DNA of 64,000 nucleotides, taken from contig NC_043007.1 in NCBI RefSeq assembly GCF_006345805.1, forward strand, positions 13,516,001-13,580,000, given 5' to 3'. The notes under the pieces are model-generated. The model made no database searches. It saw nothing but the letters and a program-made list of their open reading frames with translations, and had not been told where the DNA came from. The translations under genes were made by a program, and so were the position numbers. Each line of letters opens with the position of its first letter. Position 1 is the first letter of the stretch. Source of the stretch: Octopus sinensis (taxonomy: Eukaryota). Below are positions 56,921 through 60,910 of the stretch, piece after piece.

Positions 56921-56923
56921 TTG

Positions 56924-56960
<37 letters not shown>

Positions 56961-57053
56961 ATGGGAATTAAATATAAAATATAAATTGCAAAGTGGGACA
57001 AGAACGCAAAAACACACAAAGAGACGACACAAAAAAACAGACGGGTCACTCGA

Positions 57054-57130
57054 AGCCTCTAATCTTCAGTCGGGAACCGGATCATCTTAGTAATTTCGGC
57101 TGTTTAATCTCGATATTACTCCGACCCGGC
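57054..57130 (-). ncRNA. Rearranged hammerhead-like motif (downstream repeat)
   Basis: Minus strand agtaat-A-tcgaga-ttaaac-agcc-GAAA-ttact-aagatgatccggt-tcccga-CTGAAGA-ttaga-ggct. Confidence 0.55.
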
Positions 57131-57809
57131 CAGCCCCAAAGAAAATCCAAGCCACAGGCATTGGATTTCTTGGAAAGAGGGTCGAATGTATACGGAACAA
57201 GACAGGATGCCACACGAATATAAATACAAGAAACTAAAATAGAAATAAAAACAGAAATAAAAAACACGAATGGTGGACAGTACAAGGACAGGGGCGTCTT
57301 ACGACTTTAGACAATTTTCAACTTATCTTGGCTGGCGTATATGAAAAAAGCCTTTACGGCAAAACGAAAACAACGTTAACGTGGCCGCGGTCAGGCCGAA
57401 AAGACCAGTTTGAACGCGGTCACGTGAGAGCACGGAAGAAAGAGAAAGAAAAAGAAAGGCAGGGAGCAAGGAATTAAAGAGAGAGGGGAAAGAAAGGGAC
57501 GAAGGCACCAGGGGAGAGAGAGGGAGAGAAGGGAGTAATCAGAGAGGGGAGAAGAAATAGGATTGGCACAGCAATAGAAATGAAGGTGCAAATAAGAGTG
57601 GGGGAAGAATCAGAAGCAAGGAAAGAGAAAGAGAGAGTGTGTGTAAAGACGTCGTACAAGGTAAAAATGTGTGTATACATAGGAGATAGGGGAACGTTAC
57701 GCCGCAATAATATATGTATGGGAATTAAATATAAAATATAAATTGCAAAGTCGAACAAGAACGCAAAAACACACAAAGAGATGACACAAAAACCAGACGG
57801 GTCACTCGA

Positions 57810-57886
57810 AGCCTCTAATCTTCAGTCGGGAACCGGATCATTTTAGTAATTTCGGCTGTTTAATCTCGATATTACTCCGAACCGGA
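57810..57886 (-). ncRNA. Rearranged hammerhead-like motif (upstream repeat)
   Basis: Same motif as 57054-57130 with identical core and stems I and III. Confidence 0.55.
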
Positions 57887-57932
57887 CAGCCCCAAGGAAA
57901 AACCAAGCCACAGGCACTGGATTTATATATAT

Positions 57933-58229: not shown

Positions 58230-58795
58230 AATCCTCGCACATCTTTCTCCCTGTCCGGCTATTTTAGTTCTCTTTCCATTTTACCTCTCAAATCTTGAGG
58301 AATCTTTCATCGAGTTGGTACAAGACCTCATCAATAGCAGATGTCATGCCATCATCACTTTGATACTGGTTCCTAGCCAAGTTGTTTGTGTGTGTGTGTG
58401 TGTGTGCGTGTGTGTGTTGGGGAACAGATGATAATGAGATGGGGCCAAATCGTGAGAAAAGGGTCGGTGATCAATCAGTTCATATTCATCGTGACCCATC
58501 TCATCTATTGAAACAAAAGACTTGTGTGCTGGAGCATTTACCTGATGACCCATTTCGTAAATTTTCTAGGGCTTCAGGTCTTGATAGCCTTTCGTAACTG
58601 TCTCAGCAAGCTGGGATATTATGCCCTTCTCTGTTGGTGTGGTCCAATGAACACAGTACTATTCTCATTCTCGAAAACTAAGGCCATCACCTTCTCTGCA
58701 GATGAAACGCCCTTGGTTTACTTTCGGGCAGGTTCGGAGGGGTGTTTGAAGCGCACAGATTATCGCTTTTTCTCAGGTTCAAAGTGATGAACTCC
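58230..58795 (-). mobile_element. Mariner transposase pseudogene with an internal (CA)n expansion
   Basis: HHFEPEKKR, SAEKVMALVF, NAPAHKS, IDHRPFSHDLAPSHYHLFPN. Confidence 0.88.
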
Positions 58796-59349
58796 TACAC
58801 GGATATTCCAATCAAACACGGTTTTTCAACTGCAAACATATCTGGCGTTCTTATTTCAAAATATGGCTATCCTTGGTAGGGAAATTTCAGGAAATTCTGT
58901 AATTATTAAACTCAAACAAAGCCACAGGTTCGTGTTCATATCACTTTTCTCCTACTTTGAATCCATTACACTCAGCTAACATCTATTATTTGCCGCTACA
59001 AAAGAGTGGAATTTCATGAATATGGAAAATCAAGGAGATAGCGATATATTTTATATAAATTTTTACCCAATCTTTGCATTTCATTCTATACGGGTGATGC
59101 ATTTGATTGCATTTCTATATATAAATCAACTGTAACGAAATCTGCGTACGTATAATTAACTTTCTTGTTATCAGTTTTAAGACTATCTTTTGATTAATTA
59201 CATTTGTTTTAAGATTTTTAAAGAAATTTTCTCGTGGAAAAATGATCCGAACTAAAGGAAAAAATTAGATATGTTGAAATTCATTAAATTACATAAAGAA
59301 ATGAGAGAAAGTCAGGGAGAACAAGAAAAACAGAAATATCAAAACATAG

Positions 59350-59454: not shown

Positions 59455-59580
59455 GAATTAGATAGATGGATAGATAGAAAGAGAGAAAAAGAGAAAGAGA
59501 GAGGTGAGTGTACGCTGGAAACTGATAAACATACATAGAGACAGACAGAGAAACAGGTAGATAGATAAATAGGTAGATAT
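59350..59580. repeat. (GATA)n microsatellite
   Basis: Seen directly. Confidence 0.9.
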
Positions 59581-59891
59581 GTTTCTTTATTAGCCACACA
59601 GGGCTGCACACAGATAGAACAACTTACAAGGTAAAGCTTTTCTTTTGAAGGTTTAAAAAAAAAAAAAAAAAAAAGGGAGAGTTTCGATCAAAAGGGATCG
59701 TAAAAGGCGAGAAAGAGGACAAAAAAAGGGGGTTAAAAAAAAAGGGGGAGAGGAAAAAAAATTGATCAATAGGATCTTTATCACAGAAATGTCAATATGA
59801 AGTGTAAAGGGGAGGACAGGTGAGGTTTACCCGTGGAAAGAAAAGCCTACGGAAAAGACCACGGTAACCTCGGTCAATGAAGTACCATTTT

Positions 59892-59924
<33 letters not shown>

Positions 59925-60084
59925 AAATAGCAACTCTCTGTTTTCAATTTCTGGGTTCATAGGACTATGCTCAACGTGGCTTCGTCATTCATACGTGCCA
60001 TTCTTGCTACATTCACCCATCTTTTTTTTAAAACATTCGCTAGACAAAACTTGCCTTTCTACTCTCACTTTCCTTTTCAAGTGG
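59581..60084 (-). mobile_element. Tx1/L1-like LINE, 5'-truncated, in (GATA)n
   Basis: Near-identical to 60267-60782; ORF end, T-rich 3'UTR, AATAAA, then (ATCT)n. Confidence 0.8.
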
Positions 60085-60116
60085 AAATAGGTAGATAGAT
60101 AGATAGACAGACAGAC

Positions 60117-60182
<66 letters not shown>

Positions 60183-60191
60183 GTAGGTAGG

Positions 60192-60222
<31 letters not shown>

Positions 60223-60266
60223 ATAGATAGATAAATAGATAGACAGATAGATAGACAGATAGATAT

Positions 60267-60910
60267 GTTTCTTTATTAGCCACACAGGGCTGCACACAGA
60301 TAGAACAAATTACAAGGTAGAGCTTTTCTTTTGAGGTATTAAAAAAAAAAAAAAAAAAAAAAAAAGGGGGATGTTCGATCAAAAGGGATCGTAAAGGAGA
60401 GAAAGAGGACAAAAATAAGGGGGGTTTAAAAAAAAAAAAAAAAAAAAAAAAAAGGGGGAGAGGAAAAAAAGATCAATAGGGATCGTTATCACAGAAATGT
60501 CATATGAAGTGTAAAGGGGAGGACAGGTGAGGTTTACCCGTGAAAGAAAAGCCTGCGGAAAAGACCACGGTAACCTCGGTCAATGAAGTCACATTTTATA
60601 TTTGTTTTTTTTTTTTTTTTGCAAATAAGCAACTCTCTGTTTTCGATTTCTGGGTTCATAGGACTATGCTCAAGGTGGCTTCGTCATTCATACGTGCCAT
60701 TCTTGCTACATTCACCCATCTTTTTTTAAAACATTCGCTAGAACAAACTTGCCTCTCTACTCTCACTTTCCTTTTCAAGTGGTACTTGAAGAAGTTGATG
60801 AGAGATTGACCAGAGAGGAAAGTGTTTGTCTCCAATCCTTTCAGACGCGTCCACCAGATACATTCTTTCGCCATAGCCACAAGGATGATGAAAATAGCTC
60901 ATCATCCTTA
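60267..60910 (-). mobile_element. Tx1/L1-like LINE, 5'-truncated, in (GATA)n
   Basis: ILVAMAKECIWWTR...FKKRW, like the AKxxIWxxR / FxxxW C-terminus of Tx1/L1 ORF2, then 3'UTR. Confidence 0.8.

Follow-up and report, generated by a model that had tools for sequence, protein, structure and literature searches.

A hammerhead-like fold with a split core in a non-coding Penelope-like repeat of Octopus sinensis and in Naiad elements

The window analysed here is a 64,000-nt stretch of the Octopus sinensis genome (G000:C11:13516001-13580000, G000 being the genome that holds it). Its minus strand carries, within a non-coding Penelope-like element (PLE) repeat, a hammerhead-like fold whose chain is opened between A9 and G10.1, with a closing stem (P0) and a hairpin grafted at the opening. 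Canonical hammerheads of types I, II and III are nested three-way junctions with the cyclic strand order cleavage strand (S), CUGANGA strand (C), GAAA strand (G), whereas the octopus fold has the order S-G-C. We consider it probable that Naiad elements across ctenophores, cnidarians, molluscs and arthropods contain overlooked, active, non-circular hammerheads of this kind. They would share one cage of helices opened in various ways, with C-S-G order in nematodes and a spider and a split core with a two-helix domain at A9/G10.1 elsewhere; in octopus a kink-turn would serve as hinge, and the cut would set the 5′ ends of the retrotransposed RNAs. Statements on published work refer to the searched parts of each source.

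The fold and its helices

The hammerhead parts listed for 57054..57130 by a preliminary description of this DNA were verified on the minus strand: an AUA triplet with N17 at 57114, GAAA at 57097-57094, CUGAAGA at 57069-57063, both strands of stem III, and a stem I with 5 of 6 pairs formed. The strand order proposed there (cleavage strand, GAAA strand, CUGANGA strand) was borne out, giving a hammerhead-like fold that is not circularly permuted. A second copy of the motif lies 756 nt upstream (N17 at 57870, minus strand). A descriptor of the fold matched the window twice, once at each copy, and had no match in 30 shuffles of the window. The conserved fold exceeds the interval first described and spans 57188-57047. 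From 5′ to 3′ it runs through P0, the hairpin, stem II (10.x), helix IV, stem III, the predicted cut, stem I and a linker, and then through stem II (11.x), GAAA, stem III, the kink-turn, helix IV, stem I, CUGANGA and P0. Its parts are as follows, with the evidence for each in brackets.

57176..57188, minus strand: closing stem P0, 5′ strand (pair probability 0.9-1.0; 9 of 16 aligned pairs doubly changed, 76.6% paired)
57136..57173, minus strand: hairpin between P0 and G10.1, abutting G10.1 (covariation, folding)
57131..57135, minus strand: stem II 5′ strand (10.1-10.5), GGCUG, lying 5′ of the cleavage strand (91% paired and 22 double-change cells among 60 copies)
57122..57130, minus strand: helix IV 5′ strand, the non-canonical arm of the kink-turn (5 of 7 pairs doubly changed)
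57120..57121, minus strand: kink-turn GA, positions 2n and 1n (G in 61 and A in 59 of 61 copies, part of the sample having been fetched with a pattern containing GA)
57114..57119, minus strand: stem III 16.x strand and N17, A57114 (4 of 5 pairs doubly changed)
Between 57114 and 57113, minus strand: predicted cut
57108..57113, minus strand: stem I 1.x strand (4 of 6 pairs doubly changed; one A.C mismatch in the window's subfamily)
57098..57102, minus strand: stem II 11.x strand, reached by a 5-nt linker after stem I (covariation)
57090..57097, minus strand: G12, A13, A14 and the stem III 15.x strand (59, 61 and 60 of 61 copies; A15.1 in 61 of 61)
57085..57089, minus strand: kink-turn 3-nt bulge and GA, positions 1b and 2b (bulge variable; G in 56 and A in 60 of 61)
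57076..57084, minus strand: helix IV 3′ strand (covariation)
57063..57075, minus strand: stem I 2.x strand and core C3 U4 G5 A6 N7 G8 A9 (core positions conserved in 59-61 of 61)
57047..57060, minus strand: closing stem P0, 3′ strand, containing the GGCU at first assigned to stem II (covariation, folding)

These counts come from 61 copies, picked by hand so as to span the subfamilies and taken mostly from 95 non-redundant instances, with fewer copies kept of the window's own subfamily; for part of this sample, some core positions are fixed by the patterns used to fetch the copies. N7 was free (A 29, U 18, G 10, C 4), N17 was C in 45 copies, A in 11, U in 4 and G in 1, and U16.1 was present in 56 of 61. 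The pair G10.1-C11.1 was G-C in 56 of 60 copies and in all 21 diverse representatives, which comprise 16 metagenome loci (two near-duplicates dropped) and 5 sequences from G000. The fold thus combines the hammerhead core and A15.1-U16.1 with covarying helices I-III, an N17 that is not G, and G10.1-C11.1.

A kink-turn consists of a canonical helix, a 3-nt bulge, tandem G.A/A.G pairs and a second helix. The junction of stem III and helix IV has these sequence features, with a variable 3-nt bulge and a conserved GA opposite a conserved GA. The 13-nt linker of the preliminary description is accordingly made up of this kink-turn and the covarying helix IV. Its short linker does connect the distal ends of stems I and II, and its predicted cut 3′ of 57114 is consistent with the refined fold. 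Helix IV and a linker of 1-5 nt together form a device that joins stems I and II, in a geometry that we infer. Nested folding of the interval first described gave a z of -0.70 with stems I and II unformed, which is expected for crossing helices and is neutral evidence. At the Rfam gathering score there were no matches in the window or in 20 motif-bearing loci, and no other ribozyme in the 20 motif-less Naiad-type loci with the longest flanks.

Covariation and core conservation among genomic copies had been named as one check on the preliminary description, and both were found, with stems I and III covarying. A model of stems I and III, helix IV and the upstream stem II left 89.0% of cells paired across 60 distinct G000 copies; 16 of 23 pairs were doubly changed, with 164 double-change cells against 54 in shuffles, and slid controls of the model reached at most 49% paired cells. 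With P0 and the hairpin included (48 copies), 28 of 47 pairs were doubly changed, and the double-change cells numbered 170 against 55. Kinship among the copies inflates such shuffle tests within G000, to the detriment of our reading, and the metagenome loci described below therefore weigh more.

The preliminary description had built stem II from GGCU/AGCC at the price of a 5-nt insert; that pairing did not hold up, the partner being the upstream GGCUG (57135-57131). The rival it implies is an ordinary S-G-C hammerhead in which the downstream GGCU forms stem II and five bases loop out after A9. Such pairing is possible in the window's subfamily, it left 81.3% of cells paired with 9 double-change cells in the 60 copies, and the window's upstream copy of the motif is without the P0 5′ strand, so that its GGCU is free. 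On the other hand, the core-proximal pair (10.1-11.1) forms with the upstream strand in 57 of 60 copies and with the downstream GGCU in 35, failing in 25, and whole subfamilies (L131, L152, L139) are without the downstream complement. In the 21 diverse representatives the bases after A9 are unpaired with the 11.x strand (paired in only 25 of 105 cells). The upstream stem II duplex is also the stronger (-6.8 against -4.2). The downstream GGCU is itself bound in P0, as pair probabilities of 0.9-1.0 in the window copy and covariation indicate; its partner there is a strand about 60 nt upstream, and the hairpin fills the space up to G10.1. Taken together, this makes a downstream stem II extremely improbable, and the fold is described here with the upstream strand. 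Two further possibilities were set aside. Pairing between the stem I-II linker and the bases that follow A9 showed no covariation by eye, and an alternative register with an expanded N7 was dropped in view of the conservation of G8 and A9 in the canonical one.

The carrier repeat and the Naiad elements

The motif resides near the 3′ end of a repeat whose direct copies in the window are spaced 756-757 nt apart. The element and its surroundings are laid out as follows.

56958..57714, minus strand: complete 756-nt unit of the non-coding Penelope-like repeat, ending at the fixed 3′ end (direct repeats, shared 3′ ends)
57715..57924, minus strand: upstream, 5′-truncated copy of the 3′ end of the unit, a partial tandem resembling a pseudo-long terminal repeat (pseudo-LTR); 95% identical, with N17 at 57870 and GAAA from 57853, and without the closing-stem 5′ strand
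57680..57714, minus strand: extension ("tail") of about 35 nt between tandem units, inner limit approximate, missing from most 3′ ends
57925..57932, strand not given: (TA)n at the 5′ junction
56921..56957, strand not given: (CA)n(TA)n microsatellite at the 3′ junction

A 201-nt query of G000 gave 3161 first-look candidates, of which 40 were scored and were 96-100% identical. Genomic copies have a common fixed 3′ end, are 5′-truncated at many places and are set in (TA)n; they also occur as tandems, partial or full, whose units are separated by a short tail. The family measures about 700-850 nt and consists mostly of 5′-truncated monomers. Fixed 3′ end, 5′ truncation, partial tandems, a tail of 30-40 nt and (TA)n targets are all features of PLEs. 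There was no reading frame resembling reverse transcriptase (RT) in the unit, no long frame upstream of the motif in the copies examined, and no open reading frame linked to the 3′ end in the copies of the window's own family that were examined.

A loose GAAA..CUGANGA pattern matched G000 5114+7463 times against 244+248 in a reversed control, overlapping matches being counted repeatedly. Further pattern counts were 2777+2776 (control 0) and 160+152 (control 8+5), and, with no control figure, 1480+1511 and 423+439. These counts show that several subfamilies exist. Both by the descriptor against shuffles and by the loose pattern against its reversed control, the motif is beyond chance. Contigs of four sequencing runs cover the unit and carry no information on ends, strand or level. 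One contig of run X3 (L015:1653-1714) omits 60 nt that take in the 5′ strand of P0 and some of the hairpin, and the ends of the omission are not GT-AG.

As a parent for the family, the Neptune-type PLEs of G000 were rejected, as they share neither the unit nor the motif. They encode RT followed by GIY-YIG, some in intact frames of 775-781 amino acids, and an older Neptune-type family has a degenerate, ordinary type I minimal hammerhead in its 3′ untranslated region (L084, L085, L096, L231). Given these type I motifs, two ribozyme architectures coexist in G000. Intact frames of 775-781 amino acids with RT, Cys linker and GIY-YIG are found at L303:932-3274, L304:953-3292 and L305, and are candidate helpers for the non-coding family. 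In the L303 family, boxes resembling CCAAT, CRE and TATA recur in the 3′ untranslated region, and no hammerhead core was visible there by eye. Copies of the motif lie antisense within a Neptune open reading frame at L306:4059-4177, and head-to-head inverted, 5′-truncated copies, a PLE-like arrangement, are seen at L196, L286 and L142.

Naiads have been described as being without canonical hammerheads; 10 "HHR_core" and 8 "HHR_half_core" notes, with no fold, are given among 54 families (PMC8557442). By eye, the split architecture is present in 11 of the Naiad consensus 3′ ends in the searched passages of that source, which do not take in all occurrences and in which line breaks may hide motifs. 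Six of these (Naiad_Bfor, Amil, Aacu, Anas, Obim and Ovul) are named from the header that follows them and five are placed by file position only. The two octopus entries show the split core with the kink-turn, and the others the split form with P0 and the hairpin. Six other entries (three from Nippostrongylus, Naiad_Smim and two by position) have C-S-G order, an intact block C (CUGANGA plus stem II strand) and the same helix IV, a combination also present at one metagenome locus (L397:3400-3600). The C-S-G order was known to Eckert et al. from two sequences only (PMC10085705). At the 3′ end of Naiad_Bfor, judged by eye, stem I has about 2 bp and helix IV 15 bp, which suggests that the cage is able to replace most of stem I.

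Within G000, the published Naiad_Obim and Naiad_Ovul have 3′ ends that are matched by another repeat family (392+385 matches). The second, Obim-type version of the motif is preceded at L313, about 900 nt upstream and on the same strand, by a fragment of a Naiad-type RT. An HMMER library search with the fragment gave 460 relatives, and an alignment of 22 led to the best 80 of 419 metagenome loci; another homologous-protein search with it found nothing. The same architecture was found 3′ of the Naiad-type RT genes, on the sense strand, at 18 of these 80 loci, and C-S-G order at one (L397). Controls gave no antisense matches and none in two shuffled sets. By their RTs, the 18 split loci (L397 excluded) form 15 clusters at 90% identity and 7 at 50%, the median identity being 34%; they have 14 different stem II sequences, stems I and II of 4-8 bp and linkers of 1-5 nt. 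The descriptor selected for stems I-III and did not require P0 and the abutting hairpin, which were nevertheless present in 19 of the 21 representatives (the misses being L380 and L118) against 170 of 1050 shuffles. At the position of the octopus kink-turn, most of the metagenome examples show a plain bulge instead. We infer that the fold is the ribozyme of Naiad elements and has been retained by the window's non-autonomous family.

In the frames of L381, L387 and L437, a GIY-YIG-type region is N-terminal and the RT C-terminal, and related proteins have the same order of Pfam domains. The 1307-amino-acid Naiad-type frame at L437:202-4125 has a C-terminal extension that, by eye, presumably resembles a ubiquitin-specific protease (Cys and His boxes).

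Predicted cleavage and its alternatives

Conservation, covariation and the positions of 5′ ends make it highly probable that the family as a whole encodes a working ribozyme of split S-G-C topology. For the window's own copy, which likely cleaves itself 3′ of A57114, our confidence is lower, somewhat above even. The 5′ ends of copies were mapped after sampling with an anchor downstream of the predicted cut. For the group to which the window's subfamily belongs, 92 anchors were taken from the first 90 loci among 2991 matches, and 90 copies were at risk. Of these 90, 29 had their 5′ end within +1 to +15 of the predicted cut, where the rate over -1 to -150 would give 4.2 (p ~5e-17); the first three positions (+1 to +3) account for 8 copies, and a single copy started at -1 to -8. 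When TA-rich linker positions were excluded, 17 ends remained against 2.3 expected. Microhomology to TA in the linker may contribute to the ends at +5 to +11. Stalling of RT at the fold is disfavoured as the cause of the excess, since the same fold occurs without an excess in two other families. Cleavage that shapes the templates is therefore supported for one group only, of the three families tested.

A number of observations weigh against this interpretation, or against its extension to the window. The ends at the cut come from sister subfamilies with a perfect stem I, and the few sampled copies of the window's own subfamily do not end there. Stem I of that subfamily, with its A.C mismatch, has a duplex energy of -1.8 kcal/mol, and the mismatch and the lack of ends at the cut together imply that the window copy may be slower. 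No excess of 5′ ends was seen in the old Obim-type family (3 of 56 against 4.4 expected; 60 of 161 matches sampled) or in the young tandem-rich family (1 of 37 against 1.0 expected; 40 sites, taking the 5′-most copy of each array). Many arrays continue through a motif that is intact (L005, L046), and the upstream copy in the window begins 54 nt 5′ of the predicted cut, from which it follows that uncut or circular templates are also used. Insertion by a lizard PLE in vitro was independent of hammerhead cleavage, with no reads ending at the cut (PMC11167929), and Eckert et al. assumed an uninterruptible block C (PMC10085705). An autonomous parent of the window's family was not found among the copies and PLE loci of G000 examined. 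The descriptor had no match at 61 of the 80 Naiad-type loci, 7 of which have less than 250 nt of 3′ flank.

Several of these observations would suit a structure that descends from a hammerhead but cleaves very slowly or not at all, and that is kept as a recognition or RT-initiation signal for the PLE protein. Its location at the 3′ end of the element, close to the start of reverse transcription, fits such a role, as do the intact motifs within tandem arrays, the lack of excess ends in two of three families and the dispensability in vitro of the PAc hammerhead (PMC11167929). A mere signal does not, however, account for conservation in exactly the catalytic pattern (a free N7, an N17 other than G, and G10.1-C11.1 in all 21 representatives) across RTs about 34% identical, nor for the sharp run of 5′ ends from +1 in one family group, and we regard it as unlikely. 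Still less probable is activity confined to a dimer, in which two RNAs swap strands, or to a complex in which a protein of Snu13/L7Ae type binds the kink-turn for folding. Nested folding cannot attain the two crossing helices, tandem copies are common, and the kink-turn of the octopus motif is one that we take to be box C/D-like. Dimers have been proposed for the minimal PLE hammerheads (PMC4209133). The short stems I and II (4-8 bp at 18 loci) and the linker of 1-5 nt are, by contrast, what is expected for threading within one molecule; a palindromic stem III loop is absent, and the plain bulge of most metagenome examples offers no kink-turn for a protein of this type.

By standard hammerhead geometry, stems I, II and III plus IV would form a cage closed at one end by the catalytic junction and at the other by the junction of I, II and IV. 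The contact between loops I and II would give way to helix IV and the short linker, a bend at the kink-turn would turn stem III back, and A9 would be kept next to G10.1 by P0 and the hairpin. Most probably, transcription of the element proceeds by read-through or starts at an internal promoter. The ribozyme would then cut 3′ of A57114 and free unit-length or short 3′ RNAs from read-through transcripts. A PLE protein acting in trans would start to reverse-transcribe the RNA close to its tail or fixed 3′ end and insert the product at (TA)n; cut templates would give copies that start at the site, and uncut or circularised templates would give tandems. Internal initiation and AT-rich targets have been reported for the lizard PLE (PMC11167929), and cephalopod Naiads have been described as remnants (Craig et al. 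2021, PMC8557442).

Comparison with known hammerheads and elements

The preliminary description took the topology to be new. The S-G-C order had, however, been published in 2023 for hammerheads from metatranscriptomes, which cleave in vitro at 0.007-0.19 per minute (Eckert et al., PMC10085705). These share with the octopus fold the cyclic order, a short stem I-II linker and the full core, and helix IV joins the same strands as their "I" helix, at the other sides of stems I and II. With helix IV equated to that helix, the window fold is the SGC cage circularly permuted, its ends entering between A9 and G10.1. The published block C is continuous, the stem II strand following A9 directly or after at most 1-2 extra bases; in the octopus fold it is opened at A9/G10.1 by the grafted closing stem and hairpin, and the stem II partner lies upstream of S. 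Another difference from the Eckert forms is that both strands of stem III connect to helix IV, by way of a kink-turn in the octopus fold. A pseudoknot hammerhead (PDB 8YDC, PMC11300833) likewise has helix II as a pseudoknot and the hammerhead core mechanism, but its connectivity is Pistol-like with a loop-derived helix II, and the searched parts of that source describe no opening at A9/G10.1.

Type I/minimal hammerheads occur in PLE pseudo-LTRs (PMC4209133), that is, in the same place and the same superfamily as the octopus motif. They tolerate an unpaired base at the 5′ end of stem II, but are nested and often dimeric, with at most 1-2 extra bases after A9 where the octopus fold has a two-helix domain with the chain ends. 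Naiad PLEs (PMC8557442) have (TA)n targets, 5′ truncation, partial tandems, a tail of 30-40 nt (described for PLEs in PMC11167929 also) and the 3′-end RNA architecture in common with the window's family, which differs from Naiad_Obim and Naiad_Ovul in having no reading frame and no sequence likeness beyond this architecture. Animal non-LTR retrozymes (PMC7229834, 10.64898/2026.07.22.740005) are, like the octopus repeat, non-coding, non-autonomous, tandem, ribozyme-bearing and PLE-derived. Their units measure 150-450 nt and carry type I hammerheads, in contrast to the 756-nt unit with its permuted ribozyme. They are expressed as circular RNA; for the octopus unit, the sequencing runs used are assembled contigs.

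Neither a hammerhead opened at A9/G10.1 nor a permuted Naiad hammerhead was found in the literature searched, which was mainly non-subscription, with the Eckert supplement outside it. The same two negatives apply to the searched parts of PMC3088659, PMC13725137, PMC7229834, PMC7936874, PMC10162972, PMC11300833, PMC4209133 and 10.64898/2026.07.22.740005; PMC13725137 mentions hammerhead variants "containing additional helices". The S-G-C topology itself being known in outline, the real novelty is the chain opening between A9 and G10.1 together with the link to Naiad elements. Within that literature this would be the first non-circular hammerhead in animal genomes, and it is present in thousands of copies. 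It would extend hammerhead topology beyond the six-permutation scheme, which held the CUGANGA strand and stem II inseparable. Naiads, which are dominant in many invertebrate genomes, have been reported to lack canonical hammerheads; the split form offers an explanation that can be tested, and it would also account for their "half cores". The accumulation of 5′ ends at the cut in one family is relevant to the role of PLE ribozymes and, if our interpretation is true, is direct genomic evidence for it. The large insert accepted at A9/G10.1 and the kink-turn hinge would be new handles for ribozyme structure and switch design.

Two other features of the window were noted. Just upstream of the element, at 58344-58800 on the minus strand, the translation shows by eye a decayed mariner-like transposase fragment. 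An unrelated second tandem repeat of about 690-700 nt, with (TATC)n flanks and a strong hairpin, occupies 59525-60782 and also lies upstream in L020.
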